This document shows, piece after piece, positions 2,974-55,357 of a stretch of DNA of 64,000 nucleotides. A program made the translations under genes and the position numbers. Within the stretch, counting starts at the first letter, position 1. Every line of letters starts with the position of its first letter. This stretch comes from Planctomycetota bacterium (GTDB lineage: Bacteria; Planctomycetota; UBA11346), in assembly GCA_038213805.1 (NCBI GenBank), contig JBBQSO010000001.1, positions 101,005 to 165,004 of the forward strand, given 5' to 3'. Below the pieces are notes generated by a model. It was not told the origin of the DNA, ran no database searches, and was given only the letters and a program-made list of their open reading frames with translations.

Positions 2974-2999
2974 GTAACGATCGCGGGGGTACGGTAGAC
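2974..2999 (+). promoter_or_regulatory. Predicted ECF sigma promoter (GTAAC-N15-GTAGAC), probably autoregulatory
   Basis: The -10 element ends 8 nt before the sigma ATG (3008) and there is no SD. The same motif and spacing recur at 7030, 10383, 21267(-) and 35530(-). Confidence 0.65.
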
Positions 3000-3007
3000 T
3001 GTCCTGC

Positions 3008-3544
3008 ATGGGTACGGATCTCTCGGCCGCCGATCACGAGCGCTTCACCCGGCATTGGACCCTGGCCAGTCCGATGGTGGCGGACTACATCAGCGCCCTG
3101 GTGCCGAATTTCCATGAGGCCGAGGACCTGCTGCAGAACGTCGCCATCGTCGTCCTGCGCAAATTCGACCAGTACGACCAGGCGCTGCCCTTCGCCTTCT
3201 GGGCGATGGGCATCGCCCGCTATGAGGTATTGAGCAAGCGGCGCGAATTCTCGCGGCGGCGGGTGCTCTTCACTCCAGATCTCGCCGATCAGGCGGCCGA
3301 GCTCCAGCAGGAGATGAGCGCCGAGCACGAAGCCCGTCAGCGCGCCCTGCGGGACTGCCTGCGCGCGGTCGGTGAGCGCGCGACCACGGTGCTGCGCATG
3401 CGCTATGAAGAGGCACTCGAGCCGCGCGACATCGCCGAGCGCCTCGGCATGTCGTCAGGCGCCATCCGCGTGATGCTCAGTCGGGTGCGCTGCGTCCTCC
3501 AGGAGTGCATCCAGGCGAAGATCGCCGTGGCGGACCACCGCTGA
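3008..3544 (+). CDS. ECF RNA polymerase sigma-70 factor
   Basis: Region 2 (EAEDLLQNVAIV, FAFWAMGIARYEV) and region 4 HTH (LRMRYEEALEPRDIAERLGMSSGAIRVMLSRVR). TGATG overlap with the next gene. Confidence 0.93.
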   Translation: MGTDLSAADHERFTRHWTLASPMVADYISALVPNFHEAEDLLQNVAIVVLRKFDQYDQALPFAFWAMGIARYEVLSKRREFSRRRVLFTPDLADQAAELQQEMSAEHEARQRALRDCLRAVGERATTVLRMRYEEALEPRDIAERLGMSSGAIRVMLSRVRCVLQECIQAKIAVADHR

Positions 3545-5394
3545 TGACCGTGCCGCTCCCCCTCATCGATGCCTTCCTGGATGACCACCTGGACGATGAC
3601 CAGACCGTCGCGCTGCAGACCTGGTTGGCAGCCGATCGCGAGCACCTGCGGGCCTTCCTGCGCATCACGTCCGTGCACCGGGCGCTGCGCCGCGAGTTCA
3701 CCAGCGCCCAGGCGCACGTACGCTTCTCAGCGCAGGCACCGAGCGCCACCACCCGTCGGTTGCGCATCGCGGCGCGGCGAGGCGGATCGCGGCGCCCGGT
3801 CGGGATGAACCCGTGGTGGCTGCGGGGCGCGGGCATCGCCGCCGGCCTGCTGCTGGCGATCGGCCTGGTCATGGGCGGTCACCGCGCCGGGGATGACGCG
3901 GTCCAGATCGCCGCCGGTTCCGCCGTTATCGAGCGGCCGACGGGCCCGGTGCCGGCGCATGCGGGCGATGTGGTGCAGCGTGCCGATGCGATCGTTGCTG
4001 CGCAGGGCCCCGTCACCCTGCGCTTCGCCGATGGCACCACGGTGCGACTCGATGCGGATGCCCGGATCGTGCTGACGTCCGCAGGAAGCGCGGACCAAGG
4101 CAAGCGCCTGGAACTGGGCATGGGTCGGCTTTCCGCGAGCGTCGCCAAGCAGCCCAGCGGTCGTCCGCTGACCATCACCACCGCGACCGCGACCGCGGTG
4201 GTGGTCGGCACCGCATTCAGCCTGAGCAGCTCCGCGACTGCGACCCGCCTGGACGTCGAACACGGTCGCGTGCGGCTTGAGCGCCAAGTCGATGCCGCAA
4301 CGGTCGAGGTCGGCGCCGGCGAATACGCGGTGGCGGACCCGGGCAGCGCATTGGTAGTGCGCAAGCAGGGCACCCTGCCGGGCGATGCCCCCCTGCATGT
4401 CGGTGGCGCCCGGCACAACCAGCTCATTGGGCCGGATGGGAAGCGCTTCGTGTTGAAGGGCGCACAGGTCGGCCTCACCCTCTTCTATGCCCAGCTCGGC
4501 TCGCCGTGGGAATACCGGCTGCTCGCGGACCGGGCCGTGTTCGAGCGCGCCTTCAGCGGGCGCCTCGCACAGCTCGCGGCGATGAAGGCCAACGGCATCA
4601 ACACCGTGCGCATCTTCGTCGGCGGGGCGGTGGCCCACGACCCCAACAACGGGTATGCGACTCCAGAGCAGGGCTACGGCGGGTTCGCCGGCTATGTCCA
4701 GCGCCTGGTCACCTATGCCGACGATGCCCGCAACCAGGGGTTCCACGTCATCTTCTGCTACAATGGCGATGATGGGTGGTCGCAGGATACGAACTGGCCT
4801 GCGTATCGCAGACTGTTCAGCGCACTGGTGCCGGCGCTCGCGACCAACGGCAACGTGCTGTTCGAACTCGTCCATGAACCGGACATCGAAGATCGCGAAT
4901 GGAGCCGGTGCAGCGTCCGCGCCATCGACCTTTTCCGTTCACTCGGATATCGGGGCCCACTCGTGGTCGACCTCGATCATCGCTGCAACTGGTGGTATGA
5001 GCCCATCGTCGACGAAGTTTCCCGGCATGATCAGCAACTGGTCTTCAGCCTGCACTTCGCGAAATGGGTGGGCTGGGCGCACACCGAGGAAATGCTGCGC
5101 AACGGCGCCCATCGACCGGTGATCCTCGGACAGGTGACACCCAATGTGGGCAATGACCTTGGCGAGCCGGACGCCATCGCGGCCGTGGTCGCCATGCGTG
5201 CGCTGGTCACCCAGGAAATCGCGATCGGCGCCGTGGCGGCGGAATGGAATGCACGCGATGGCCAGCCTCCGACGCCCGGCACGGGCATGACAGACGACGA
5301 TGGCGCCCTCGTGCCGAACTCATGGGGCGTTGGATATCGTGATGGATTCAGTGGTCGCCTGCCTGATTGGCTCCCTGTCGCAACGCCTCCGTGA
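3544..5394 (+). CDS. FecR-type anti-sigma factor with C-terminal GH5-like (clan GH-A) domain
   Basis: N-terminal anti-sigma helix (LIDAFLDDHL), one TM helix, FecR core (LRFADGTTVRL, TATAVVVGTAF, LDVEHGRVRL), then a TIM-barrel with INTVRIF, VLFELVHEP, FSLHF and PVILGQV. Start at ATG 3544. Confidence 0.85.
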   Translation: MTVPLPLIDAFLDDHLDDDQTVALQTWLAADREHLRAFLRITSVHRALRREFTSAQAHVRFSAQAPSATTRRLRIAARRGGSRRPVGMNPWWLRGAGIAAGLLLAIGLVMGGHRAGDDAVQIAAGSAVIERPTGPVPAHAGDVVQRADAIVAAQGPVTLRFADGTTVRLDADARIVLTSAGSADQGKRLELGMGRLSASVAKQPSGRPLTITTATATAVVVGTAFSLSSSATATRLDVEHGRVRLERQVDAATVEVGAGEYAVADPGSALVVRKQGTLPGDAPLHVGGARHNQLIGPDGKRFVLKGAQVGLTLFYAQLGSPWEYRLLADRAVFERAFSGRLAQLAAMKANGINTVRIFVGGAVAHDPNNGYATPEQGYGGFAGYVQRLVTYADDARNQGFHVIFCYNGDDGWSQDTNWPAYRRLFSALVPALATNGNVLFELVHEPDIEDREWSRCSVRAIDLFRSLGYRGPLVVDLDHRCNWWYEPIVDEVSRHDQQLVFSLHFAKWVGWAHTEEMLRNGAHRPVILGQVTPNVGNDLGEPDAIAAVVAMRALVTQEIAIGAVAAEWNARDGQPPTPGTGMTDDDGALVPNSWGVGYRDGFSGRLPDWLPVATPP

Positions 5395-5405
5395 AGGATT
5401 CCCAC

Positions 5406-6905
5406 ATGCACCTGCGCACGACCACCACTGTCCTGGTTCTAGCGGCGCTGTCCTGCAGCGCGCTCCATGGGGCCGTCCATGAGGTCGGTCCGACGACTCC
5501 GCTGGTGTTGTCGCTGGCCGACGTCGCCGGGGGCACCGATGTACGCAACAATGCCAAACACAATCCGGGCGGCGGCTACCTTAGTGTCTACGACGGCATC
5601 AAGGAATTCGGCTACCCGTCCACCCACGGCAACCAGCTTGGCAACACCGCGCTGGTCAATGACCATGTCTACTGGGATAGCAGCCCGGGCGGCCTCGACT
5701 TCACCCACACGCCACCTCCCGACGCGGGCTGCGGCAGTGCCTTGTGGTGGCCCATCCCCGGGGAATGGACAGCCTACCAGTTCGCGGTGACCAGCCCGGG
5801 AACCTATTCCGTGCTCTGCCGCTTCTCGTCATCGTGGGGACCGGCCAAGCCGGCCACGGCGGTGCTCACCATCGATGGCGTCGCCAGCGCGCCCGTGCCG
5901 CTGACTCCGGACGATCCGAAGCTGTGGTCCGATACGCACTACCAGGTGGGCGGGTGGTGGGGACACACCATGGTCAGCGGCACCTTTCCGGTCGCCTGGT
6001 CGCTGGGCACCGGCGCCCACGTGCTGCAGGTGCGCATCGACAGCTTCCCGGACAAGCCCACGGACCACGGCAATCTCTGGATCCATTATTTCAAGATCAC
6101 GTCGAGCAAGACCGCCGGCAGGGCGCCGGCCGTGGTGCTCAAACCTGTCGTGCCCCGCCAGCTGGCCGCGGCGAACGCGGCATTCAAGACGGCAGAGGAG
6201 TGCGAGCAGAAGGGGCGCCTGGGCCAAGCCATCGCCGCCTACGAGAAGGCGGCAGGCGGAGCGGTAGCAGGCAGCGATCTGAACGAGCGCGCCACGACCA
6301 GGGCCAAGGCGCTGCGTGAGGCCGGCGAGCAGAAGCTCGCCGCTGCACGCGCCCTCGCACCCGAGGCGGCAGCGCCCGTCCTGGCGCGGATCGCGAGCGA
6401 CTATGCCGGTAGCGACGTGGGCGACTCCGCACGTCCCTCGTCACCGGCGCAGACCCAGGCACCGCCCCAGAAGGCCCCCGCGGACACCGGCACGACCGGG
6501 TGGACTGCACCCGACAAGCAGCAGGCGCTCTCCGCGCTCCGCACCATGATCCTGGACACCGCGGGGCGGATGCCGATCACAGCGACCATCGCGCTGTTCG
6601 GGAAGCCGCAGGCGGTGGTCGTCACCAAATGCGACAAGCAGGGTCTGGATCTCAGACTCACCGGCTCCAGCTCGGAAATCACCCTGCAATGGCAACAGCT
6701 CGGCAACGAGGACCTGGGGCGGCTGGGGCAGGCCTGCATCCTCGGTCGCTCGGACCAGGCCCTTGCCGTTGGGGAGTGGTGCATCGCCTGCGGGCTCGAA
6801 ACCCTGGCGAAAGCCACGCTGAATCGCGCGGCCGAACTCGATTCGCGGTTGGCGCCGGCAGTGGCCGAACGGCTACAGGCGCTCCACGCCAAGTCCGCGC
6901 CCTGA
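5406..6905 (+). CDS. Secreted protein: CBM6-like beta-sandwich, TPR-like helices and C-terminal domain of unknown function
   Basis: Signal peptide; GEWTAYQFAVTSPGTYSV, GAHVLQVRID and WIHYFKI resemble the galactose-binding/CBM6 fold. The N-terminal domain is paralogous to that of 7132-9255. Confidence 0.6.
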   Translation: MHLRTTTTVLVLAALSCSALHGAVHEVGPTTPLVLSLADVAGGTDVRNNAKHNPGGGYLSVYDGIKEFGYPSTHGNQLGNTALVNDHVYWDSSPGGLDFTHTPPPDAGCGSALWWPIPGEWTAYQFAVTSPGTYSVLCRFSSSWGPAKPATAVLTIDGVASAPVPLTPDDPKLWSDTHYQVGGWWGHTMVSGTFPVAWSLGTGAHVLQVRIDSFPDKPTDHGNLWIHYFKITSSKTAGRAPAVVLKPVVPRQLAAANAAFKTAEECEQKGRLGQAIAAYEKAAGGAVAGSDLNERATTRAKALREAGEQKLAAARALAPEAAAPVLARIASDYAGSDVGDSARPSSPAQTQAPPQKAPADTGTTGWTAPDKQQALSALRTMILDTAGRMPITATIALFGKPQAVVVTKCDKQGLDLRLTGSSSEITLQWQQLGNEDLGRLGQACILGRSDQALAVGEWCIACGLETLAKATLNRAAELDSRLAPAVAERLQALHAKSAP

Positions 6906-7029: not shown

Positions 7030-7055
7030 GTAACGCGCAGCGTCGGCCGGTAGAT
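7030..7055 (+). promoter_or_regulatory. Predicted ECF promoter (GTAAC-N15-GTAGAT)
   Basis: Intergenic, upstream of SD GGAGGA (7121) and ATG 7132. Same spacing as the motif at 2974. Confidence 0.65.
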
Positions 7056-7131: not shown

Positions 7132-9255
7132 ATGAGCATCGCCCATCCCATCGCAGCTGGTCCGCTTCGGACGATGGCGTCGCGCGTTCGCCGCCGCTCC
7201 GCCTTGATCGCCATGCTCATCGCGCTGTTGATGGCCGGGGCGCAACCTGCCCAGACCGCGACCTTCGACGTGAGCCCAACCAGCCCGGCGATCATCCCGT
7301 TCTCCAGCGTCATCGGCGGATCGGATGCGGCGAACAACGCGAAGAACAACGCGAATGGCGGCTATTTCAGCGAATTTGACAATGTCAGTCAGTTCAACTA
7401 CCCGGCCGGTCATGGCAACCAGCTCCAGAACACGGCGATGATCAATGACAGCACCAACTATTTCGACAACGTGACCTGGCAAGGCGGACAGCCGGCCGGC
7501 TTGTCACTGTCGGGCGTTCCCGCCCCGGACGCGGGCTGCGGCGATGCGGCCTGGTGGCCGGCTCCCGGCGATTGGGTCTCGTACCAATTGAATGTCACCA
7601 CCGCCGGCACGTACACCGTCCTCACCCGTTTCTCGACGGCGTGGGGTCCGACCGGCACCGTGACCTACCATATGACAATCGATGGGGTCAGCAGCGGGCC
7701 AGTCACCATGCACCCGGACGACAACGCGTATTGGACGCCTGGAGCAGGCGGATTCCAGCGTCCGATCGATGGCTGGTGGGGACACAATTATGTCCCGGGC
7801 ACCATGCCAACCGGCTGGAGTCTGGCCGTAGGACCGCACGTGCTCAAGGTCTTCATCGACAACTGGCCCGGCACAGCGCCTGGGCCCAGCTCCTCGGGCC
7901 CGGGCGACATCTGGCTGCATTACTTCAAGGTCCTGGCTGGCGGCACGCCGGTGTCCGGGCCGGTGCCCGCACCGACCTTCTCATTCTCGCCACTTCTGAC
8001 CGCCACCGCCAATGGCTTGATGGCGACTGGTCCCGTGACGGTCACGATTGAGGACACCGATGCCACCGCGGTCATCCATTACACCACCGATGGCAGCACG
8101 CCGATGGCATCCTCGCCCACGTATACTGCGCCCTTCATCATCAGTGCCCTGGGCGCCGCGACCATCAAGGCACTGGCGATCGACGGTACCGACAGCGCGG
8201 TGGCGACCACGACGTTCACCATCGCTGCGCCCCCGACGGTGGCGACCGCGGCCAACGCCGCGCCGAACCCGGTGACGGGCACCACCACGGTGCTGAGCGC
8301 GCTGGGCGCAACCACCGGCGCGGGCGGCGAGCCGACGCTGACCTACACCTGGTCGACGACCGGGTCGACACCGGCGGCGGTGCGCTTCAGCGCGAACGGC
8401 AGCAACGCCGCGAAATCGGTCACCGCCACCTTCGCCGGCGCCGGCACCTACAATTTCCAGGTCGCGATCGCCAACCCCTTCGGCTTATCGGTGACGAGCA
8501 GCGTCAGCGTGGTGGTGGACCGGACCGTGACGGGCGTGGCGGTGGTGCCGGGCACGGCGTGGATCTCGGCCGGCTCGAGCTTCACCTTCACCGCCTCGGC
8601 AGTCGACCAGTTCGGGGCCGTCATCTCCGGGACTCCGACCGTCACCTGGTCGGCGACGGGCGGCAGCATCACGGCGGGCGGAGCCTACACCGCCGGAAAT
8701 GCCGCGGGCACCTTCTCGGTCACGGCGGCTTCGTCGACGGGCAGCGGGTCGGCGACGGTGGTGGTGACTGCCGGCTTTGCGGTCAGCATGACCTTCCAGC
8801 CCGCGCAGACGCCGCCCTTCGGCAACTACCTCGTCGACAACGGTGCGGTCTTCGGCGATCGCGGCAACGGCCTGAGTTACGGCTGGGACCAGGACCTCAG
8901 CACCTGGGCGCGCGAACGCCAAGGCAAGGGTGGCACGGCACCCGATGCCGGCCACGACCGCCTGATCTACGTGCAGCGCGCGGGCAATGCGGTCTTCCGC
9001 ATCACCGTCCCGAACGGCACCTACAACGTCCACATCATCAGTGGTGACGCCGCCTACTCCGCCAGCGTCTTCAAGGTGTCCGCCCAGGGCGTGCTGGTGG
9101 TGGATGGGACGCCGACGCCGGGCAACCGCTGGATCGAAGGCACCCAGACCGTGACCGTCACCAACGGCACGATCGCGGTGACCAGCGCCAGTGGGGCGCA
9201 GAACAACAAGATCTGCCAGCTCGACATCGCCGTCGTCCCCGCAGCCGTCAACTAG
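7132..9255 (+). CDS. Secreted multidomain glycan-binding/adhesin-like protein (CBM6-like, Fn3-associated/CHB_HEX_C-like, PKD/Ig-like and C-terminal beta-sandwich)
   Basis: Signal peptide, Thr/Ala-rich, IHYTTDGSTP..SSPTYTAPF motif, LTYTWS...AGTYNFQV Ig-like repeats, and a C-terminal FGDRGNGLSYGW..VPNGTYNV domain. Confidence 0.7.
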   Translation: MSIAHPIAAGPLRTMASRVRRRSALIAMLIALLMAGAQPAQTATFDVSPTSPAIIPFSSVIGGSDAANNAKNNANGGYFSEFDNVSQFNYPAGHGNQLQNTAMINDSTNYFDNVTWQGGQPAGLSLSGVPAPDAGCGDAAWWPAPGDWVSYQLNVTTAGTYTVLTRFSTAWGPTGTVTYHMTIDGVSSGPVTMHPDDNAYWTPGAGGFQRPIDGWWGHNYVPGTMPTGWSLAVGPHVLKVFIDNWPGTAPGPSSSGPGDIWLHYFKVLAGGTPVSGPVPAPTFSFSPLLTATANGLMATGPVTVTIEDTDATAVIHYTTDGSTPMASSPTYTAPFIISALGAATIKALAIDGTDSAVATTTFTIAAPPTVATAANAAPNPVTGTTTVLSALGATTGAGGEPTLTYTWSTTGSTPAAVRFSANGSNAAKSVTATFAGAGTYNFQVAIANPFGLSVTSSVSVVVDRTVTGVAVVPGTAWISAGSSFTFTASAVDQFGAVISGTPTVTWSATGGSITAGGAYTAGNAAGTFSVTAASSTGSGSATVVVTAGFAVSMTFQPAQTPPFGNYLVDNGAVFGDRGNGLSYGWDQDLSTWARERQGKGGTAPDAGHDRLIYVQRAGNAVFRITVPNGTYNVHIISGDAAYSASVFKVSAQGVLVVDGTPTPGNRWIEGTQTVTVTNGTIAVTSASGAQNNKICQLDIAVVPAAVN

Positions 9256-9594: not shown

Positions 9595-9663
9595 TCGCGT
9601 CCGGGCCTCTGCTCGTCGACACCACACATGTTCCCGTCCGATTGCGGGCGGGGAAAGAGTTCC

Positions 9664-10338
9664 ATGCGCCTGCGCATCCTGGCATCAGCCCACCTCATCC
9701 TCGGTAGCGCTCTCGCCTGCCACGCCGCCGATGATTTCTACCGCCGCGCCAGCGTGCCGGACCTCTCCCACGAGTCATCATCGTGCGTCGACGATCTGCG
9801 AATCGGGTATTGGTTCATGCCGCTGGCCACCAACATCGACACCAGGCTGAACGGGGCGACGAGCTACCAGAAGCACGGTCACCTGCAATCAGGCAGCCGG
9901 ACCTCGCTGCAGTGGGCGCTGCCGTTCACCGACCTGCGGAATGACGGGGATGGGCTGCTCGCCCTCGAACTCTCCAACATCCGATATCATCAGGATCAGA
10001 GCACCACCGATCCGCTGATCGATCTGAACGCCTATGCGTTGACCCTGCATGTTGATCTGGCCTGGCCGATCGCCGGCGGTGGCCACATGGAGCTCGGGCC
10101 ATTCCTGGGCTATGGCGTGTCTTCGGTAAGCGCACAGCACTGGAATGGCTTGTTCTGCGAGTTCGGCGGGCGCCTGGGCGCCTACTGGACCTTCGCCCGG
10201 CACCTGCAGGTCGGCCTCGATCTGCGCTACCTGGGCACGTATGCGCGCCAGGATTTCGCGGTCGGCGCCGCCAGTGAAGAGGTCGTGATCAAAACCAAGG
10301 GCGGATCCGCCGGCGTGCAGTTCGGCTACCGGTTCTGA
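9664..10338 (+). CDS. Outer-membrane beta-barrel protein
   Basis: Signal peptide, alternating amphipathic strands (ELGPFLGYG, QVGLDLRY) and C-terminal GVQFGYRF. Confidence 0.7.
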   Translation: MRLRILASAHLILGSALACHAADDFYRRASVPDLSHESSSCVDDLRIGYWFMPLATNIDTRLNGATSYQKHGHLQSGSRTSLQWALPFTDLRNDGDGLLALELSNIRYHQDQSTTDPLIDLNAYALTLHVDLAWPIAGGGHMELGPFLGYGVSSVSAQHWNGLFCEFGGRLGAYWTFARHLQVGLDLRYLGTYARQDFAVGAASEEVVIKTKGGSAGVQFGYRF

Positions 10339-10416: not shown

Positions 10417-12627
10417 ATGGAGCCAGCACTCGGTTCGGCACATGTCAGGAACAACGCGCAGACAGGCGATAGAGCATGCGTGCCGATGCCGGTGCGCTGT
10501 GGAGCAATGCCGTGTGCGGGCAAAACGCCCGGAACCCCTGGGATCACCCGCTGCGGCTTCACGCTTTTTGAAGTCGCCATCTCGCTCGGCCTCGCCGCCT
10601 TCGGGGTGGTCAGCGTCATGATGCTCTTCCCGCAGGGCATCAAGGCCCAGCAGATGGCCCGCTCCCGCTTCTTCGCCGCCACCAAGGCGCTGGAGATGGT
10701 CGACAGTTACAACTCCTTCAACAACGCCACCGCGAACATCGACAACGAGGCGCCCGATCCCTGGGACGTCCCGACCGGTCGCTGCAGCTCTGCCAACGAC
10801 CTCGAGCGCCGCCTCGCCTCGCCGCGTTTCGGCATCGCGCCCCTGCCAACGGAGATCGCCAAGCGCCTCGATTCCGATGGCGACGAGATCCGGCAGATCC
10901 TCGGCGACGGCGGTTTGCTGTATTATTCCCAACCGCAGGCGGCCGCCGGCTTCATGGAAACCGGGACGCCCGCGGCGCCACCGGTCGAGGCCCAGCGCCT
11001 GGTCTTCGCCGTGGTCGGCTATGCCCAGGACAACGCCATCCACGTGTTCCCCTGGAAGGCATGGCCGTACTACACGCCCTATCCGTCGCCGCCGATGCAC
11101 GGCTACCACCAGTACGAGGCCGATCCGGCGGTCCTGCAGTCGGTGCCGGCGGATGCCCTGCATTACTCCGCGGGCAGCTTCACGGTGGATCCTTTCCAGA
11201 ATTCCCGGGACTGGGACACCGATCGTATGCTTATCGAGGACGCCAACGACCCGGACATGCGCAAGGTCTTCACCTGCACCAACCAGGCGGCCTCCGCAGG
11301 CGCCCCCGCCGGTTCCGTCGAGTTCGGCTACAAGCAGCACTTCAGGGAGCGGAGCCTGGACTCGGCGCTGCGCTACTGCGCCGCCGCCCTGTGGTATTGC
11401 GAGCGCAAGTTTCCCGGCGCGGCGGCCTCATACTTCCTCACCAGCGCACCCTTGACGACCTTCCCGACCTCGGTCCCGCAGGACCGCAAGGGGGACCTGG
11501 TGAACTGCCTGCGTTTCCTTTCGCACGCCACCACCTGCCTGACCGCCTTCGCCAGCAAGGGCACGCTGGATGCGGGCGTGATGGTTCCGCAACTGACCGT
11601 GGATTCCCTGACCTCGCCGGCGGCCCTGGTGACGACGAGCGTCATCATCAACCAGCACGAGAGCTGCCTCGACCTGGCCATGCTGTTCGCCGCGAGCTAC
11701 CCCTACGACTGGGCCGCTCCGCGACCGGAAAACCGCATGATCATGATGGATCATCCACTGCTGGAATACGATCTCTTCCCCACCAGCTCCGCGCCCATGC
11801 TGAGCGGCAGGATCTGGCCCGGAAATCCGCTGATCCCGGCGAACCAGTGGCGTCCCATCGCCGCCCAGCCGATCGTGCACATCGGGCGCAGCTACCAGTT
11901 CCCCAGCGAAGACATCCCCAGCGCCAATCCGGTGTGGTCCTGGTGGGGCTCCACCACGCCTCCGACGCCACCCTATGCGGCCGGCCAGCCCAGCACGTTC
12001 TGGGGTGACCCCAGCCATTTCACCCTGACCAACACCTTCGAGCCCAGCGAGCGCTGCCGGCAGCTGGTCTTCTGGGCGGTCGATTGGATGCAATACGAGG
12101 ACTGCGAGACCGCCCCGAGCGCACCCATCGACGCGAGCCGCTACACCCGCTCAGCGCCGAAGGCGAGGGCCGCAGCGGGCGGCCCGGTGGACACGGTCGA
12201 TAAGCTGTTCGATGCGCCGGCGTTCATGGAGTGGGCCCAGCAGAGCACCAACCGCAATCCGGAGAAGACCATGATCTTCTCGGTCCCGACCGCCGGGAAG
12301 CCGGATGGGTACACCGGCGCGGATGTGGGACTGCCCAAGACCTTCTCCGATGGCTTCGCCTGGACCCTGCGCTTCGGAAACGACGGCGTCCCGACGCCGC
12401 CGACGTGGAATCCCTGGGCCTTCGGGCACAAGCGCGACCAGGGCATGACGCCCCTTGCGCCGAGCGACCCGGATCCGCGCAAGCTCTTCCTGGGGCGCTT
12501 CGGCGCCGATCGCAACTTCAATGGGCGGCTTGATCGTGGCACGCTCCCCGTCTCCGTCCGCCTCCGCGCCCAGACCGTGGCGCGCTTCAACTACTACGAT
12601 CTGCGCGTCCCCGCCATGATCCGCTGA
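10417..12627 (+). CDS. Large prepilin-type N-terminal cleavage/methylation domain protein
   Basis: Class III signal G|FTLFEVAISLGLAAFGVVSVMMLF followed by ~650 aa unknown domain. Start uncertain (10417, 10486 or 10507). Confidence 0.8.
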   Translation: MEPALGSAHVRNNAQTGDRACVPMPVRCGAMPCAGKTPGTPGITRCGFTLFEVAISLGLAAFGVVSVMMLFPQGIKAQQMARSRFFAATKALEMVDSYNSFNNATANIDNEAPDPWDVPTGRCSSANDLERRLASPRFGIAPLPTEIAKRLDSDGDEIRQILGDGGLLYYSQPQAAAGFMETGTPAAPPVEAQRLVFAVVGYAQDNAIHVFPWKAWPYYTPYPSPPMHGYHQYEADPAVLQSVPADALHYSAGSFTVDPFQNSRDWDTDRMLIEDANDPDMRKVFTCTNQAASAGAPAGSVEFGYKQHFRERSLDSALRYCAAALWYCERKFPGAAASYFLTSAPLTTFPTSVPQDRKGDLVNCLRFLSHATTCLTAFASKGTLDAGVMVPQLTVDSLTSPAALVTTSVIINQHESCLDLAMLFAASYPYDWAAPRPENRMIMMDHPLLEYDLFPTSSAPMLSGRIWPGNPLIPANQWRPIAAQPIVHIGRSYQFPSEDIPSANPVWSWWGSTTPPTPPYAAGQPSTFWGDPSHFTLTNTFEPSERCRQLVFWAVDWMQYEDCETAPSAPIDASRYTRSAPKARAAAGGPVDTVDKLFDAPAFMEWAQQSTNRNPEKTMIFSVPTAGKPDGYTGADVGLPKTFSDGFAWTLRFGNDGVPTPPTWNPWAFGHKRDQGMTPLAPSDPDPRKLFLGRFGADRNFNGRLDRGTLPVSVRLRAQTVARFNYYDLRVPAMIR

Positions 12628-12635
12628 GCCGACCC

Positions 12636-13898
12636 ATGCGCATCCTGCGAACCAGTGGCTTCACCCTCATCGAGATGCTGATCGCGATCGCGCTGGGCGT
12701 GGTCATCATCACCACCTGCGCCGCCGGCTTCCGCGTGGCCAGCCAATCGATCAGCGTCGCCAACCGCCTGGCGCTCGAAAACACTTTGATGCGCTCCGGG
12801 TACTTCGCCGCCGTCGAGGAGGCAGACTACTGGGAGTCGTTCGATGATCCGAACGCCACGCCCGCGCCTGCGACGTCGCTGCGGGGCAGCGCCTCGCTGA
12901 CCTACCATGGCGTCGCCACCGCGCGCGGCATGGCCTTCACGCCCCTCACCCAGATGGGCTTCACCTGCGCAGCGCCCACGAACAGCGAGGCCGACCGCGG
13001 TTGGGACAGCGCCTACCAGTGGCCAGCCAGCGATCCGCGCGGCTGGTACCATGGCCAGATCCCGGAATTCATGCACAATATCGACGGAAAATTCGGCTTC
13101 TACGAGGTGTTCACCCACCTCAGCAGTGCGCCGAACCTCTCCAGCACCGCCTTGGTCCAGAGCGCCAACCTGGTGGCATATGGGGTGGCGAGCCCACTGC
13201 ACACCTGGCTGCCCAACCAGCTTGAGGGGATGAAGAACGCGCTCGGATATTACGGCCTCTACGACTACTTCCCGGCCAACACCTTCTTCGGCTACTACGG
13301 CCACGGCGATTGGGGGGACCAGTCCCTGTCCCATGAATGGTCGAACCCGGACAGCCCCAATACCGCCTCGCCAAACGGCTCGCTGTTCAAACTGAGCGGC
13401 TTCTCGCAGGGGTACGACTACTCGACGGTCAACGGCCGGAACAACAACACCAACAGCGTCTCCTTCCCCATCGTCCCGGCCTCGGGCTTCACCGAGTTCA
13501 GGACCGACACGCTGGCGGTCCAGGACCTGGTCAGCCGCAACCACAGCTCGTGGGTGACCAACACCTACCAGGCCGCAGGCACCAGTGCCGGCGTCAGCGG
13601 CTTCCTCGGCAATGCGCTCGTGCGCACGCCGCTCATGACGTCCCGGCCCGCCTACTGGCCCGAGCTGCGCGTCCAGGTCGCGCGCTACGCGAATCAGTCC
13701 CGCTTCGCCACCCTGTGCCGGATCAGCTGGCGCAGTCCGCTGACCGGTGCCACGGCCGAGGCCGCCTTCACCGTGCTGAGCACGACCTTGCGCGGGGCCC
13801 GGCAGCAACGCCGCCAGGGCGGCGGTTGGGCGACCTGGACGAATTCCATCAGCGATCCCATCCTGCGGACCACCGATGCCACGCTCGACAGCCCCTGA
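12636..13898 (+). CDS. Prepilin-type (PilW/GspJ-like) protein
   Basis: G|FTLIEMLIAIALGVVII class III signal. Confidence 0.85.
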   Translation: MRILRTSGFTLIEMLIAIALGVVIITTCAAGFRVASQSISVANRLALENTLMRSGYFAAVEEADYWESFDDPNATPAPATSLRGSASLTYHGVATARGMAFTPLTQMGFTCAAPTNSEADRGWDSAYQWPASDPRGWYHGQIPEFMHNIDGKFGFYEVFTHLSSAPNLSSTALVQSANLVAYGVASPLHTWLPNQLEGMKNALGYYGLYDYFPANTFFGYYGHGDWGDQSLSHEWSNPDSPNTASPNGSLFKLSGFSQGYDYSTVNGRNNNTNSVSFPIVPASGFTEFRTDTLAVQDLVSRNHSSWVTNTYQAAGTSAGVSGFLGNALVRTPLMTSRPAYWPELRVQVARYANQSRFATLCRISWRSPLTGATAEAAFTVLSTTLRGARQQRRQGGGWATWTNSISDPILRTTDATLDSP

Positions 13899-27619: not shown

Positions 27620-29170
27620 TCACTGACCGCGCACGATTCCCGGGCAGGCGATCTTCAGCACGAACACGTGCGCGCACGGCGCCTTCGCCGGCACGGTGAC
27701 GACCAGGCCCGCATCCGTGCGCGCCACGGTGAGCGCGCCCTCGCTGCCAAGCATGCGCACCTCACCGAGCTGCGCCGGGCCCTTGCCGGTGGCGAGCGAG
27801 GCGATGGTCACCTGGCCGCCATCGCCGGGCCAGCCCATCAACAAGGCGTAGAGCACGCCGTCCGCGATGGTGAAACGGATGTCCTGGGCGGTGTACTGCA
27901 TCTTGTCTTCATTGAACTTCCCGCCCTTGACCTCCGCCGCTCCGGGCGGCCGCTCGCCGTAGACCGTCCACGGCCGGGTCGCATAGATGGCTTCGCCATT
28001 CAGCGCGGTCCAGGCGCTGATCTCGGCGAGCGTGGCGAGCATGTCGGGCTCAAGGTCGCCTTCCGGCGTCTGCACGATGTTGATCAGCAGATTGCCGTTC
28101 TTGGCGACGATGTCCGCGAGGGTCTTGATGATGGTGTCGGCGCTTTTGTACTTCTGACCAGTGCTGTAGAACCAGTCGCCGATGCTGGTGTCGGTCTGCC
28201 AGGGCAGCGCCTGGACCTGGTCCATCACGCCGCGCTCCAGGTCCTGCACCCACTTGCCCGCGGATGGCTCCTTGCAGTTGTAGACCGCTTCCACGGTGCC
28301 GCCGTGCCGCGCCTGATCCTGGTTGTAGTAATGCGCGAGCATGCTGCGTCCGACGTCGCCGAAGGGCAGCGCGCTGTCGGAGTAGAGCAGGTCGGGATGG
28401 TAGTTGTCGATCAGCTCCTTGACGTCGTCGAACCACTCGCGGTGCCACGCGGTATTGACGGTCAGCCAGCCATGGTCGCCGGGCGCGGCTTTGGTGTGGT
28501 AAAGGTCGGCGTACTGCGGATCGGCGCCGTCATACGGCACGCCCATCAGGGGCCCATTGCTGTCGGAGCCGTGGCTGGCCTGGAACCAGGTGTAGCTGGC
28601 CGCGAGGTGCTCGGAGACGCCGAAGCGCAGACCCTCCTTCTGCGCGGCCTGCTGCCAGATCCCGACCACGTCCTTCATCGGCCCCATCTGCGCCGCATTC
28701 CAGCGATGGATCTTCGACGCCCACAGGAAGAAGTTGTCGTGGTGACTGCCCATGCTCACGAAATATTTTGCACCGGCCTTTTTATAGAGCGCCATCAGCG
28801 CGGCCGGATCCCACTTCTCGGCCTTCCACAGCGGGATGATGTCTTTGTAGCCGGTCTTGGAAGGCGGGCCGTACTTGGCGAGGTGGTCCTTGTAGTCAGC
28901 ATCCTTCTCCTCGTACATGCGCCGCGCGTACCAGTCGCCGTGGCGCGGCACCGCCTGCGGCCCCCAGTGCGCCCAGATGCCGAACTTCGCGTCGCGGAAC
29001 CACGTCGGATACCGGTACTGCTGGAGCGAGGCGTCAGTGGCCTGGAACGGGCCCGCGGCGAGTTCGGAGGCGGCCACGATCGGCTTGGCGTCCTCAGCAG
29101 CCATGGTCCCAGGGACCAGACCAGCGAGGAGGGCGGCTAGGGTCAGGGAAGAGGTGGTGATGTGGTGCAT
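27620..29170 (-). CDS. Alpha-L-fucosidase, GH29
   Basis: WFRDAKFGIWAHWG, AGAKY, HHDNF.LW, YHPDLLYSD, WQTDTSIG.WFY and KNGNLLIN motifs; signal peptide. Confidence 0.93.
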   Translation of the reverse strand: MHHITTSSLTLAALLAGLVPGTMAAEDAKPIVAASELAAGPFQATDASLQQYRYPTWFRDAKFGIWAHWGPQAVPRHGDWYARRMYEEKDADYKDHLAKYGPPSKTGYKDIIPLWKAEKWDPAALMALYKKAGAKYFVSMGSHHDNFFLWASKIHRWNAAQMGPMKDVVGIWQQAAQKEGLRFGVSEHLAASYTWFQASHGSDSNGPLMGVPYDGADPQYADLYHTKAAPGDHGWLTVNTAWHREWFDDVKELIDNYHPDLLYSDSALPFGDVGRSMLAHYYNQDQARHGGTVEAVYNCKEPSAGKWVQDLERGVMDQVQALPWQTDTSIGDWFYSTGQKYKSADTIIKTLADIVAKNGNLLINIVQTPEGDLEPDMLATLAEISAWTALNGEAIYATRPWTVYGERPPGAAEVKGGKFNEDKMQYTAQDIRFTIADGVLYALLMGWPGDGGQVTIASLATGKGPAQLGEVRMLGSEGALTVARTDAGLVVTVPAKAPCAHVFVLKIACPGIVRGQ

Positions 29171-29193
29171 GGGTGCCCTCGCTCGTAAAGGGC

Positions 29194-29211
29194 ATTAACG
29201 TTAATATTAAC
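29194..29211. promoter_or_regulatory. Overlapping palindromes ATTAACGTTAAT / GTTAATATTAAC, candidate repressor operator
   Basis: AT-rich perfect palindromes 24-41 nt upstream of the GH29 start in ~70% GC DNA. Confidence 0.55.
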
Positions 29212-29605
29212 TATTGCAAGATGGAGCGCATGATTGGCGATCTTTCTTATTGTCATTCAATGACTTGCGACCAAGGATCTACAGCATATTCGGAGCCGTC
29301 AGCGCTCGGCAACGGGCCCAGGTGTTTTTAGTAACAGTTGTAGGCGGAGACGGTCCCCATGGCTTTCAAACGCATTCCCACCACGACTCGCTTCATCCGC
29401 CGTGCTGCTGGTGCTCCCAGTCGCAGCGCCCCCGATCAGGCGCCTGGAAACTCCCAGACCAGGCCCGGAACTGCCAGCGATGCGGGGCTGACGGCGCGCA
29501 AGGACTCCCAGGTGCCATCGCGCCCCCTGTGGCTGTGAGTGTCCGCAACACACCTGGGTAAGGTCGCGCAGGGTGCCTGACGCGCTGCCCATGTGCAGCG
29601 ACCAC

Positions 29606-30958
29606 TCAGCGACTTTCGAAACACCCCACATCCGGATGCTTCCCGACGAATGGGAAGCCGATCTCGACGCCCCGGTCGATGCACTGGCTGCCGGGAGCGA
29701 GATGCATGAAGGTCACATCCGGCAGGCTGCCGTCCGCTTTACGCGGCTGGACCAGTTGCGCCTCGTCGACGCTGAGGAAATCGGCGTCGGTGACCGTCAG
29801 CCCGAGGTCGAAGGAATTGGCCACCGCCTCGCTGTGTGCGGCGTCCAGGTTGGTCAGCTCCCTGCCGCCCTTGTAGCCGAGATTGTTCTTCAGCACGTGG
29901 CCCGCGCCGGGCACGTTGAGATCGAAGTGCTCGCCGTCGGGATCATTCACGCGCTCAAGCATGTTGTAGTTGTTGCCATTCCGGTAGGCGCTGTTGCTCA
30001 GCCAGTCGCCGCCCGTGAGGTGGTGGTTGGCGTAGAAGCCGCTGGCCTTGTTGCGCACCGCCAGGCAGAAGCGCACGGTGTGGCGCGGCATCGGGCTGGG
30101 CAGGCGCGCGGTCGGCGTGCGCGCCCAGCCGCCGGCCTTGAAACCGTTGCCGTCGCCCAGGCTGGTGAAGGCGGTGGAGTAGCCGTTGTCCATCGCCCAG
30201 CAGTGGTCGAACACCACCGCCTCGCAGGCGGTGATGCAGTCGTAGCCGTCATCGCTGTTGAACCACGCGCGGCATCCGCGGAACACGTTCCCGGTGCTGC
30301 CTTTTCGCGGGTGGCACCCGAACCCATCGGTGTTGCCGCCGCTGCCGTCTTCGGAGACGTGATCGTGGTTGCGGTAGGCGTCGCAGTTCAGGATCAAATT
30401 GTTAGATCCGCCCACCAGGTAGAGACCGATCGCCTGGCCGTCGTGCATGGCCAGGTTCTCGTAGATGTTGTCGCTGCCCAGGTTCTCGAAGCATTCCGAC
30501 TGGGTGTGGGTCTTGATGGTGACCTGGACGCCGGTCACCGCGAAGCCCTTGAAGCGCAACCACGAGCCGGTGACGTGGAAGGCGATGATGCGCAGGCCCT
30601 CGGCGCGCACCTGCGCGAAGTCGAAGACCGGCTGCTCGTCGTGGTAGGCGACGTAGCTGATCGGCGCCGCCTGCGTCCCGCTCTTGTCGAGCGCGAAGAT
30701 GTGGGCGAAGACACCGACCTTGCGCGCGATCTGCTCTTCACGCACGTGGTAGGTGCCGCCGCGGATGAGCACGGTATCGCCCGGCGCTGCGGCCGCCTGC
30801 GCGCGCGTCACGCTGGCGAAGGGCTGGGCCAGCGTCCCGGCGTGGGCGTCATCGCCGTCGGGAGCGATGACATATTCCGCTGCGCCGCAGGCGTGCGCCA
30901 GGGTGGTAAAAAGCAGAATCGCCCACGTGGCGCGAGAAAGGACGCGGGCCATGGTCAC
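29606..30958 (-). CDS. Polysaccharide lyase family 9-like right-handed beta-helix protein
   Basis: GDTVLIRGGTY, LNCDAYRNHD, GNTDGFG, GCRAWFNSDDGYD, GDGNGFKAGG motifs. Confidence 0.88.
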   Translation of the reverse strand: MTMARVLSRATWAILLFTTLAHACGAAEYVIAPDGDDAHAGTLAQPFASVTRAQAAAAPGDTVLIRGGTYHVREEQIARKVGVFAHIFALDKSGTQAAPISYVAYHDEQPVFDFAQVRAEGLRIIAFHVTGSWLRFKGFAVTGVQVTIKTHTQSECFENLGSDNIYENLAMHDGQAIGLYLVGGSNNLILNCDAYRNHDHVSEDGSGGNTDGFGCHPRKGSTGNVFRGCRAWFNSDDGYDCITACEAVVFDHCWAMDNGYSTAFTSLGDGNGFKAGGWARTPTARLPSPMPRHTVRFCLAVRNKASGFYANHHLTGGDWLSNSAYRNGNNYNMLERVNDPDGEHFDLNVPGAGHVLKNNLGYKGGRELTNLDAAHSEAVANSFDLGLTVTDADFLSVDEAQLVQPRKADGSLPDVTFMHLAPGSQCIDRGVEIGFPFVGKHPDVGCFESR

Positions 30959-33282
30959 TTGCCATTCCCAGCTGCAGCCGGAGCAATGTGGTACTGCGCA
31001 CCGCGCACGGTGTCGAAGCCCAAGCGCCCGCCCGCGATGACCACGGCAACCGCAGCATCCGCTCCGACGACACTGACAACGGGTGCCCCATCCGCCCAGG
31101 GCACGGCCAGCGAGCAGCGCCCGCCAACCGCGCTGACCAGGTCGATCGGGCCGACCGCGCCGTGCGCGAAGGCCGCACTGATGCGGAAGCCACCTTCTGC
31201 CGCGAGGTCATGGAAGGATGCGTCGCGACCGCTCGGCCAATTCGGGAACACGCGAATCACGCCACCCTGGCTCTGCAACAGCATGGAATCAATCGCCTCG
31301 ATGGCACCGACCGATTCGATGCCGTGCACCGGGGGCATGATGGTGAGATTGGCGCGCAGCGACGCGTGGTCGCCGCGATCGTCGTAAGGCTGTCGACCGG
31401 CGAGCATCAAGCGCAGGTTGTCGAGCACCGCCTGCGCCGGCCAGCCGGAACGGACCGCCTGGGTGTAGATCTTCGGGAAGCAGTTGGCCTGGAACCACGA
31501 TTGCTTGCCCTCCACGGGGCAGAGCTCCGCGACGGTATTGCGCGCGATCGCGAAGGCGGCCTCATCGCCAGCATCCAGACCCTCACCGGGGAAGACATGG
31601 AAGAGCACGTCGCTGTTGTCGCCAGCGCCGCCGAGCGACATGCGCGTGCGGTTCTCGGCCTCCTTGAAGATGGTCGCGCCGCCCGCGACCATGGTCGGGT
31701 AGGCCGCGAGGTGGTCGAGGTAGCCGCGCCAGCGCAGCTGGTCCGCGGGGGTGATGTGGATGACCTCGTCCCCGCTGCGCTGACCGTCGAGGTGGTCCGC
31801 GGTCTGCAGCAGGAAGCGGTAGATCGTGCGCACGAAGGCCAGCTCGTTGATCGGATTGGTGTCGTGGCCGCCCTCGCGCGTCGAGCTATCGGCAATGATC
31901 CAGCGCTTCCCGCTCTCATCCCAGGTCAGGTTGTCCTGCCAGAACAGGTCCAGTTCGTGCAGCAGCGGCCAGGCCTTCTCGACCAGGAAGGCGTCGTCGC
32001 GGGTGTAACGCCAGTGCATGAGAAACCCCAGGCAGGCCAACGACGCGTTGCCCTTCATGTTCAGCGTGCGGGTGTCGGTAAAGCCGCTCCAGGCGTGAGC
32101 GTTGACCCCGAACAGCACGCCCTTGGTGCCGTGCTCCGCGGCGAGCGCGCGGCCCGCGGGAATCAGCTTCAGGATGACGTCGTAGTACGGCGCGGCGAGC
32201 TCGGCACGGTTGCAGGAATACACCCCCCACCAGGTGGCCTCGAAGTTGTAGTCGAGGGTGTAGCGGTTGCCCCAGCACACCGGCCCGTCCAGATGCCATG
32301 GTCCGGCCAAGCCCGGCGCCACCGCACCCGCGCGCGCGGAGCAGCCCAGGACGTAGAGTGCACCGTAGTAGTAGCCTTCGACGAGGTCGTCATCGAGGCG
32401 GATGGACGAGCGCGCCCAATAGGCACGCCACCAGGCGAGGTGGGTGGCGCGACGCTGGCTGAGTGCGGACGCGTCGCAGCGCGCGGCCAGCGCTTGAGCC
32501 CCGGCCACCTGATCGCTGCTGCCGACACCGCCGGCGACCGCGGTCACGACGGTCACGGAGCCGTGCGCAGGGATGGTGAAGGCCGCCGTCGCCGTCCCCT
32601 TGCCGTCCGCGGCCATGATCGCCGTGACCCCCAGCACGCGCGTGACCAGCGCCGCCCTGGTGGTGGTCGGTTTGCCATCCATGGTCACCGCGAACTCGCG
32701 CGTCGACCATAGTGCGTCGCCCGCGCTGCCCGAAGCGATGGTGGCGCGTGCCGCATGCGACCACAGTGCCAGATCGACGGCGATGGACGCGTCTCCGTCG
32801 ACCGACAACTCGGTCACCAGCAGGTCGCCATCATCCGCGGTCCAGGCGCGCGCACGCACGTCGCCGCCCGCCAGCGGTATCAGCGAGCGCACCTCGGCCA
32901 GGGCCAGGTCCTGCTCCTGGCGGTAGCGCGTGGCTTCCCCCGCGAGTGCGTGGAAGCGCAGCGTCAGGCCGCCGACGCCGCGGGTCGACTGGCTGAGGTT
33001 GGCCTTGGAGATGTAATAGGTCTGCGTGGTGGCGGTGCCGCCGACGGCGACGGCGAGGTCGCCGTTGCCCAGCAGCGGACCATCGGGGACGCGGCAACCC
33101 TTGATGGCGGGGTCGGGCGTGCCGACCGTTGCCGGTGGCGCGGTGTAGACGCCCACGTGGCGCGCCACCGGCGACACCTCGGCAGCCGGTGCGCTCTCCA
33201 CTCCGCACAGGCCGGGCGCGGCCTGGAGGCAGATGACGAGCGGCAGGAAGAGGACGGACGCGCGGCGCAGCTGATGGGGCAC
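30955..33282 (-). CDS. GH95-like glycoside hydrolase (divergent)
   Basis: PLLGNGD, YTLDYNFE, SMLLQSQGGVIRVFPNWP and LAAEGGFRISA motifs. GTG start at 33282 with SD GGAGG. Confidence 0.8.
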   Translation of the reverse strand: MPHQLRRASVLFLPLVICLQAAPGLCGVESAPAAEVSPVARHVGVYTAPPATVGTPDPAIKGCRVPDGPLLGNGDLAVAVGGTATTQTYYISKANLSQSTRGVGGLTLRFHALAGEATRYRQEQDLALAEVRSLIPLAGGDVRARAWTADDGDLLVTELSVDGDASIAVDLALWSHAARATIASGSAGDALWSTREFAVTMDGKPTTTRAALVTRVLGVTAIMAADGKGTATAAFTIPAHGSVTVVTAVAGGVGSSDQVAGAQALAARCDASALSQRRATHLAWWRAYWARSSIRLDDDLVEGYYYGALYVLGCSARAGAVAPGLAGPWHLDGPVCWGNRYTLDYNFEATWWGVYSCNRAELAAPYYDVILKLIPAGRALAAEHGTKGVLFGVNAHAWSGFTDTRTLNMKGNASLACLGFLMHWRYTRDDAFLVEKAWPLLHELDLFWQDNLTWDESGKRWIIADSSTREGGHDTNPINELAFVRTIYRFLLQTADHLDGQRSGDEVIHITPADQLRWRGYLDHLAAYPTMVAGGATIFKEAENRTRMSLGGAGDNSDVLFHVFPGEGLDAGDEAAFAIARNTVAELCPVEGKQSWFQANCFPKIYTQAVRSGWPAQAVLDNLRLMLAGRQPYDDRGDHASLRANLTIMPPVHGIESVGAIEAIDSMLLQSQGGVIRVFPNWPSGRDASFHDLAAEGGFRISAAFAHGAVGPIDLVSAVGGRCSLAVPWADGAPVVSVVGADAAVAVVIAGGRLGFDTVRGAQYHIAPAAAGNGK

Positions 33283-33673
33283 GAAATCTCCTCCGCATGG
33301 CGAGTCGGATCTGCTCAAGCATACCCCCGTGGCGGCAGGCTGGGGACGGTGACACGGGTCATGTCCGCCGTGCCTGCGTGCCGCCACGGGCGGTGGCATC
33401 GCCCGAGCCTTTCCGGGACCGTTTCCGCGGCGCCGGTCCGGCACATCGGTCGCAGCGGTCGGAGATGAAGTACCGCCTGCATTTTCAGATGTTTACAGGA
33501 CTTCAGTCCTCCGTCGTGGTCATTTCGTCACCTGCTTGGTAGCATTTCCGATGAAGCCTGATCCGCGTCTTCCGAGGGGTGCGGATCGACCCTCCGACGC
33601 AGTCTGGCCCTAGCCGGCGCGCGATCACGAATGTACCATCGGACATGACCACCGTGCCGTCTTCCGTGGTGCC

Positions 33674-34540: not shown

Positions 34541-34592
34541 GATGACTGCCGGACTGCCGCGCGTGGCCGCCACTGCCCCGCGTACCCATTCC

Positions 34593-55216: not shown

Positions 55217-55357
55217 GGGTTCCCCCTGTAATGTCCGACCGCCCGGTCTCAGCCCGCCCAGCAACGGGCGCAGTGGCTGTGGATCGGGGATCATCTGCAG
55301 GTGATTCCGAAACGACGCGGAAGCGCACGGTACCTACCGCCGCACCCGCACGCCGCT

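Follow-up and report, generated by a model that had tools for sequence, protein, structure and literature searches.

A predicted ECF sigma factor is paired with a FecR-type anti-sigma factor that ends in a GH5-derived barrel

The locus analyzed here is a pair of overlapping genes, encoding a sigma factor and its predicted membrane-bound anti-sigma factor, that lies near the start of a 64,000-nucleotide (nt) stretch of DNA (hereafter, the window) from the Planctomycetota assembly GCA_038213805.1 (contig JBBQSO010000001.1, positions 101,005 to 165,004). The host is a soil planctomycete with a genome of 5.5 Mb that is 90% complete. On the plus strand, an extracytoplasmic function (ECF) sigma factor of 178 amino acids (aa) (3008..3544; P0001) is followed by a single-pass FecR-type anti-sigma factor of 616 aa (3544..5394; P0002), the C-terminal part of which is a (beta/alpha)8 barrel derived from glycoside hydrolase family 5 (GH5). 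The stop codon of the sigma gene (TGA, 3542-3544) and the start codon of the anti-sigma gene (ATG, 3544-3546), the latter common to all homologues, share one base within the sequence TGATG (3542-3546). The sigma factor consists of regions 2 and 4 only (Sigma70_r2, 30.9 bits; r4_2, 34.9 bits) and, with 139.8 bits, scores above the cut-off (124.55) of TIGR02989, the ECF subfamily of the Rhodopirellula/Verrucomicrobium type.

The anti-sigma factor begins with a cytoplasmic, DUF4880-like region (residues 13-42; 3580..3669; 23.7 bits for a curated cut-off of 25), and 15 of its first 60 residues are invariant across the 14 FecR-fused sequences described below. Its only hydrophobic window (residues 93-111; 3820..3876; Kyte-Doolittle maximum 1.83) is preceded by a stretch, residues 60-92, that contains eight lysines or arginines and no aspartate or glutamate, the pattern of a single transmembrane helix with the N-terminus inside. 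The periplasmic FecR domain (PF04773, 54.3 bits; residues 152-244; 3997..4275) is also weakly similar to PupR in a profile comparison (6ovk, E 0.013). Within this domain, Gly222-Thr223 (4207..4212) is invariant in 14 of 14 fused sequences, aligns with the VLG[A/G]SF segment of 4m0n/4m0h and occupies the position of the Gly-Thr self-cleavage motif of the FecR family, the chemistry of which has been reported for G181-T182 of FecR and G191-T192 of FoxR (PMC9249621); judging from this alignment, self-cleavage at Gly222-Thr223 is possible. The GH5-derived barrel, a pseudo-glycosidase, spans residues 280-616 (4381..5391). Its acid/base motif reads HEP (CAT GAA CCG; 4873..4881), with the Glu kept and the Asn replaced by His, and its nucleophile position, at the end of strand beta7, is Gln530 (CAG; 5131..5133). 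The initial annotation of the window, which was made from the DNA letters, had described the gene overlap, the succession of anti-sigma region, transmembrane helix, FecR core and GH5-like barrel, and both altered catalytic motifs. All of its statements about the sequence are correct.

The C-terminal domain is a genuine GH5 homologue

The Cellulase/GH5 profile (PF00150) matches residues 345-505 of the window protein with 22.0 bits, slightly under its cut-off of 23.5. Among the clade-mates of this protein, P0017 reaches 37.5 bits and five carry precomputed PF00150 matches. With the barrel (residues 280-616) as query, a search of 1.84 billion cluster representatives retrieved 28 proteins at E≤1e-3, and PF00150 scored above its cut-off in 25 of the 26 matches that were scanned. 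The barrel sequence by itself gave no more than a chance match in the PDB. The AlphaFold2 model, computed from a 37-row alignment, is a (beta/alpha)8 barrel with a mean predicted local distance difference test (pLDDT) score of 93.6 and a predicted TM-score (pTM) of 0.93. Foldseek aligned this model to at least 500 PDB entries at E≤0.001; all among the matches listed belong to clan GH-A, nearly all of them to GH5, and a language-model atlas places the barrel with PF00150 clusters. The C-terminal domain is therefore a real GH5 homologue.

The catalytic pair has been lost throughout the fused clade

Members of clan GH-A are expected to carry their two catalytic glutamates at the ends of strands beta4 and beta7. 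In the AlphaFold2 model, the acid/base and nucleophile positions of the barrel end precisely these strands (beta4, 159-162; beta7, 247-252), which places Gln530 at the nucleophile site, where the initial annotation had put it. An alignment of the barrel with 24 free (unfused) GH5 relatives was used to define both catalytic columns. The acid/base column reads NEP in 24 of 24 free relatives and HEP in the window protein, and the nucleophile column holds Glu in 23 of 24 free relatives and Gln in the window protein. The exceptional free relative, P0033, is garbled from the nucleophile region onwards; it looks like a gene call that is truncated or shifted in frame and is not taken for a further lineage of pseudo-enzymes. 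The beta3 His column varies even among the free relatives and was not used as evidence.

The FecR-fused sequences number 14: the window protein, its 91%-identical relative P0043 (locus L001), P0003 to P0013, and P0017. None of them retains both catalytic glutamates (0/14, versus 23/24 of the free relatives), and the acid/base Glu is absent from 12. Seven keep the nucleophile Glu and have lost the acid/base Glu, the motif of which reads QQP in P0004, P0008, P0009 and P0011, NNP in P0005, HQP in P0006 and NTY in P0017. Four others have neither Glu, with Ala at the nucleophile position next to HIP (P0007) or HLP (P0010), or Ser next to DGP (P0012) or DMP (P0013). Gln at the nucleophile position is restricted to the nearest subclade, that is, to the window protein (HEP), P0043 (NEP) and P0003 (HGP), and is not the commonest lesion of the fused clade.

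At position 5131, contigs from two runs (of one study, possibly of the source sample) show no difference from CAG, and Gln is also present in the 91%- and 80%-identical relatives; the codon is thus neither a read error nor a private mutation. The initial annotation was accordingly right to call the GH5 domain catalytically dead, given that 14 of 14 fused sequences lack a complete catalytic pair. The check that it proposed, for an E-to-Q change conserved among homologues, fails as worded, since that change is found in 3 of the 14 only; the inactivation itself stands. On sequence grounds it is solid that the window protein is a GH5 homologue that ought not to be classified as an active enzyme of the family.

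The fusion arose once and the barrel is under purifying selection

In a maximum-likelihood tree of 38 rows, the 14 fused barrels form one clade with a bootstrap of 99 and a Shimodaira-Hasegawa-like approximate likelihood ratio test (SH-aLRT) value of 98. Its sister is a fragment with NEP and Glu, and the clade is nested among secreted GH5 proteins with F5/8-type-C or type IX secretion system (T9SS) sorting domains. The GH5-FecR fusion has, as read from this tree, a single origin. Parsimony on the character "both Glu present" requires two changes, one on the stem branch of the fused clade and the other in P0033, and hence the fusion and the loss of the complete catalytic pair map to the same branch. 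After the fusion, single catalytic residues appear to have drifted differently between lineages.

Loss of the catalytic pair has not been accompanied by decay. In the comparison with the 91% relative, the barrel has the lowest ratio of nonsynonymous to synonymous substitution rates (dN/dS), 0.13; the ratio is 0.19 in the FecR region and 0.20 in the N-terminal region that includes the transmembrane helix. Invariant positions across the 14 sequences number 91 of 337 in the barrel and 26 of 159 in the FecR region, and the barrel is the best-conserved region of the protein. These substitution patterns are those of a domain under purifying selection. The fused family was found in 4 of 48 surveyed genomes of the order, all of them in the genus of the window (4 of 11, the host genome counted), and in none of the 37 genomes of other genera of the order (61-96% complete) at E≤1e-10. 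Those relatives that have names are metagenome-assembled genomes of Planctomycetota, and a scan of metagenome contigs found no relative.

The genome pairs 24 FecR proteins with sigma factors and lacks the classical TonB-dependent partners beside them

Neither the docking domain nor the receptor of a TonB-dependent signalling route accompanies the locus. The FecR_C/STN-like docking domain (PF16344) has no match in the anti-sigma factor at E≤1, nor in any of the 24 FecR proteins of the genome, the one weak match of which lies elsewhere. According to the match tables, each of the 24 FecR matches closely follows an ECF sigma match that has the same orientation. Plug domains, diagnostic here of TonB-dependent receptors, number only two in the genome, one on contig C73 and the other at C3:45293. 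Neither is beside a sigma/FecR pair, and the window (on contig C1) contains no TonB-dependent receptor, as had been noted from its sequence. The anti-sigma factor is thus a FecR-domain protein that fails two defining traits of classical cell-surface signalling, the docking domain and the cognate transducer.

The 23 other FecR proteins extend 125-413 residues beyond the FecR domain. Their C-terminal heads match PA14 in three cases, Laminin_G_3 in four, NPCBM in one and, weakly, a beta-helix in one; the remaining 14 have no Pfam match. With such varied heads, the 24 pairs look like an array of TonB-independent sensors. The paralogous pair most similar to that of the window (L005, G000:C6:75117-77548) is the one in which the FecR protein ends in a weak match to a right-handed, pectate-lyase-like beta-helix, and this protein may be a second enzyme-derived sensor.

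Putative glycan-binding neighbours and a conserved promoter-like motif

Twelve nt past the stop codon of the anti-sigma gene starts down1 (5406..6905, plus strand; P0047), which encodes a secreted protein of 499 aa with a signal peptide, an N-terminal domain similar to carbohydrate-binding module (CBM) families 6 and 35, and a helical C-terminal half. A second secreted protein, down2 (7132..9255, plus strand; P0045; 707 aa), joins a CBM6/35-like N-domain to CHB_HEX_C/Fn3_assoc and Ig-like repeats. The two N-domains, of about 230 residues and 44% identical, belong to no Pfam family and have 28 homologues only. That of down1 is modelled as a CBM6/35 sandwich (pLDDT 85.4), and its best structural match is the CBM6 of CtXyl5A (Foldseek E 2e-7). 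Further downstream lies a candidate small outer-membrane beta-barrel protein (9628..10338, plus strand; P0048; 236 aa), with a signal peptide, a C-terminus ending in ...GYRF and a weak match to autotransporter/outer membrane protein beta-barrels. The arrangement of sigma factor, anti-sigma factor and down1 is conserved in three of three related loci, the most distant of which has 48% identity in the anti-sigma factor; down2 and P0048 are syntenic in two of the three (L001 and L002), the third contig ending early. Beyond them (10417-13898, plus strand), two large proteins (736 and 420 aa) carry N-terminal prepilin-type methylation motifs and are syntenic only in the 91% relative.

Alignment of upstream DNA revealed a promoter-like motif, GTAACG-N14-GTAGAC (2974..2999, plus strand), that ends 9 nt before the ATG of the sigma gene and constitutes a putative autoregulated ECF promoter. 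A second copy, GTAACG-N14-GTAGAT (7030..7055, plus strand), lies upstream of down2. ECF promoters typically have a -35 element that contains AAC. The pattern GTAACG-N14-GNAGAY is present twice in the window, for an expectation of 0.02 and with 0 of 100 shuffles reaching two copies, and these same two copies are the only ones in the 5.5-Mb genome. No copy precedes P0048, the membership of which in the predicted regulon is uncertain, and none was found in the upstream DNA of the 28 paralogous sigma genes (29 scanned, including that of the window). In L001, L002 and L003 the motif stands in the same place before the sigma gene, amid intergenic DNA that has diverged. It also precedes down2 in L001 and L002, and in L003 it precedes down1, which there has an intergenic region of its own. 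A third exact copy in L003 (2353-2378, plus strand) is located inside the anti-sigma gene of this 48% relative, in the barrel region, and could reflect chance or an internal promoter. The sigma gene of the L005 pair is preceded by GTAACG-N14-GGAGAG, a sequence near the promoter-like motif of the window.

Other features of the window

A glycan-degradation cluster on the minus strand (27620-35354) comprises a GH29 fucosidase, a Pel9A-like beta-helix lyase, a GH95 protein and a GDSL esterase; an AraC regulator accompanies it on the plus strand. The composition of the cluster suggests the use of fucosylated or pectic polysaccharides, and it contains no copy of the sigma motif. A 1158-aa fusion (51818-55294, minus strand) unites a CheB methylesterase, a CheR methyltransferase, a PAS domain and a histidine kinase, and a 402-aa protein (61520-62728, plus strand) resembles the bacterial eRF1-like (baeRF) families.

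A probable TonB-independent glycan-sensing switch and its alternatives

We consider it probable, with moderate confidence, that the locus encodes a TonB-independent, transmembrane switch for the sensing of periplasmic glycans. Under this model, the cytoplasmic N-terminus of the anti-sigma factor would hold the ECF sigma factor at the inner membrane, and the GH5-derived barrel, its hydrolytic activity lost, would be the receptor itself and bind a beta-glycan in the periplasm. The barrel would thereby sit in the slot where a classical FecR has the small domain that docks on the TonB-dependent transducer. Binding of the glycan, which we infer to be the activating event, would render the periplasmic part open to regulated proteolysis, with a cut by an S41-type site-1 protease followed by one of an RseP-type site-2 protease, so that the sigma factor would be released directly. 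An M50/RseP-like protease and two S41 proteases are encoded in the genome. The freed sigma factor would then transcribe from GTAACG-N14-GNAGAY promoters, the predicted targets being its own operon (sigma factor, anti-sigma factor and the first CBM6-like protein) and the gene of the second CBM6-like protein. Indirectly, the best case for a glycan receptor is made by paralogues that carry lectin-type modules in the slot occupied here by the GH5 barrel.

Several observations weigh against this model. The profile scores of the window protein for PF00150 and DUF4880 both fall just short of their cut-offs. Cellulases and mannanases tie in the Foldseek comparison, all GH5 subfamilies tie in Z score, and the closest free GH5 relatives have no close solved homologue; because of these ties, substrate specificity is not readable from the barrel fold. 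The genome-wide count of two motif copies is close to the mononucleotide expectation of 2.4 for a pattern that was derived from these very sites, and the weight of the motif therefore rests on its position and on its recurrence in relatives. The predicted regulon consists of binding proteins and includes no enzyme. The conservation of the barrel surface is also the reverse of what an unchanged binding cleft would lead one to expect. For this comparison, barrel positions were divided by a crude split that used predicted strands without coordinates. One part, the old active-site face, comprised the C-terminal ends of strands with the loops that follow them; the second was the face opposite to it, and the third contained all remaining positions. 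In the fused clade the old active-site face proved the least conserved, with 14 of 80 columns invariant (entropy 1.03), compared with 26 of 80 (0.64) on the opposite face and 52 of 177 (0.89) in the third part. The order is different in 16 free GH5 relatives, where conservation peaks on the active-site face (13 of 77 columns invariant, versus 5 of 80 on the opposite face and 3 of 143 elsewhere). Accordingly, either orthologues recognize different ligands or the surface of importance now lies elsewhere, for instance where the barrel meets the FecR domain or a partner protein, and the picture of the same cleft that still binds is weakened. Fourteen cleft-side residues are still invariant in the fused clade, six of them Trp.

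This inversion is one argument for an account that we regard as unlikely, yet as the most serious of the alternatives, in which the barrel is a protein-docking module and a periplasmic or outer-membrane partner, such as the CBM6-like proteins or the small outer-membrane barrel, replaces the TonB-dependent transducer and carries the signal. The genes of these candidate partners are syntenic with the anti-sigma gene, those of the CBM6-like proteins are linked to it by the motif as well, and the structure that the down1 domain matches best is the CBM6 of CtXyl5A, which packs there against the GH5 module. The conserved opposite face may, however, be an intramolecular interface with the FecR domain, and both the classical sugar-binding modules in the same slot of the paralogues and the six invariant cleft-side Trp residues speak against a role confined to docking. 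Drift of the active-site face also counts in favour of a barrel that is a structural cap, which would stabilize the anti-sigma factor against proteolysis and convey no specific signal, the switch answering to general envelope stress. We hold this to be improbable, since the barrel is under strong purifying selection as the best-conserved region of the protein, a dedicated promoter motif and a regulon of glycan-binding proteins are kept down to 48% identity, and the different heads on the 24 paralogous pairs argue for specific inputs. Least credible, and in our estimate very improbable, is that the barrel has kept an enzymatic activity of unusual mechanism or on an unusual substrate, be it through a different nucleophile, by substrate-assisted catalysis or as a transglycosylase, in which case the anti-sigma factor would be a hydrolase that is anchored in the membrane and also regulates. 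The acid/base Glu kept in the window protein, the full NEP of the 91% relative, the nucleophile Glu kept in half of the fused sequences (7/14) and the purifying selection on the barrel are all compatible with such an activity, and "alternate mechanisms" are allowed for incomplete GH5 members by Aspeborg et al. (PMC3526467). Against it, both residues are together in none of the 14 members, and the missing residue varies by subclade, so that no common alternative mechanism is apparent. Moreover, the Glu-to-Gln change at the nucleophile is the one present in a solved substrate complex (2ckr, Cel5A E355Q with cellotetraose, according to the entry title), and no other part of the barrel is as poorly conserved as its old catalytic face.

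Relation to known sensors

The concept of a dead GH5 module on an anti-sigma factor as a cellulose-binding biosensor is already published. In Clostridium thermocellum, Rsi24C-GH5 is reported to have lost its acid/base residue, to bind crystalline cellulose and to signal via the anti-sigma N-terminus (Aspeborg et al. 2012, PMC3526467), the Rsi24C/sigma24C gene pair being Cthe_1470-1471 (PMC3990059). Like the window protein, Rsi24C is the membrane anti-sigma factor of an ECF-like sigma factor and exposes, outside the cytoplasm, a GH5 module with lost catalytic machinery, for which a biosensor role has been reported. It differs in belonging to a Gram-positive bacterium without a periplasm and in having no FecR domain, whereas the window protein is built on a FecR scaffold in a diderm planctomycete. 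The lesions differ too: going by its description, Rsi24C lost the acid/base residue, whereas the window protein lost the nucleophile and its clade-mates are disabled in various ways.

Arrays of RsgI1-9/SigI pairs in cellulolytic clostridia, in which anti-sigma heads of the CBM3, PA14, CBM42, GH10 and GH5 types are reported to sense polysaccharides directly (PMC6852018) and site-2 cleavage of RsgI is attributed to RseP (PMC12203970), resemble the host genome in their multiplicity of paralogous pairs, which here number 24 with PA14, LamG, NPCBM and GH5-derived heads. The two sets of systems differ in sigma factor (SigI versus TIGR02989 ECF), in anti-sigma scaffold (RsgI versus FecR) and in envelope. 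The Pfam matches of the anti-sigma factor include FecR and, slightly below its cut-off, DUF4880, and no RsgI domain, and the sigma factor is of the TIGR02989 ECF type, not SigI. The trait held in common with RsgI and Rsi24C is an extracytoplasmic module of carbohydrate-active or carbohydrate-binding type on an anti-sigma factor; the window system is analogous to them in function without shared ancestry, and is not a member of their family. With FecI-FecR-FecA, FoxR and PupR, on the other hand, it shares the ECF sigma factor, the single-pass anti-sigma factor, a predicted sigma-binding N-terminus and the periplasmic FecR domain with its Gly-Thr pair, and release by Prc/RseP-type proteolysis has been reported for anti-sigma factors of the FecR/FoxR type (PMC9249621). 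Those systems differ by their TonB-dependent transducer and FecR_C/STN-like domain, the C-terminal slot of which is filled here by the GH5 barrel, and by their iron cargo, which has no counterpart here.

Other GH5 groups are known to have lost catalytic residues and to sit on long branches (GH5_30, the Xanthomonas expansin-linked group and GH5_8-related lipoproteins; PMC3526467), and for none of them has a fusion to a FecR anti-sigma factor been described. Likewise, the available part of the ECF re-classification (PMC7826278) discusses FecR-like groups and mentions no FecR bearing a glycoside hydrolase. A literature search for a FecR-GH5 fusion, which covered few subscription journals, found no description of one. 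The novelty of the window system lies in several points: a FecR scaffold in which another domain has taken the place of the docking domain; its occurrence in a diderm; a clade confined to one genus, within which inactivation followed several routes; a pattern of conservation that is turned around relative to free enzymes; and a predicted regulon of small size. A broader scenario, which we put forward tentatively and regard as possible and still doubtful, is that a single fusion joined a secreted GH5 protein to a FecR scaffold and was followed, in sister lineages of one planctomycete genus, by loss of the catalytic pair along different routes, and that, together with the 23 paralogous pairs (at least eight of which have PA14, LamG or NPCBM heads), the fusion protein forms a TonB-independent periplasmic glycan-sensing array, a planctomycetal counterpart of clostridial RsgI.

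Significance

FecR anti-sigma factors are the textbook partners of TonB-dependent transducers, and a single genome here uses 24 of them without such transducers. Bacteria of the Planctomycetes-Verrucomicrobia-Chlamydiae (PVC) group possess many ECF sigma factors and few characterized regulators, and a fold derived from a glycoside hydrolase in the place of the docking domain provides a testable model of polysaccharide sensing in this group. The fused clade offers a natural set of GH5 barrels that have been inactivated in different ways yet are kept by purifying selection, which is useful for studies of how enzymes become receptors, and the predicted two-promoter regulon of CBM6-like proteins describes a circuit small enough for heterologous rebuilding. 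If the array scenario is true, the sensors of this planctomycete could watch polysaccharides that are taken whole into the periplasm.

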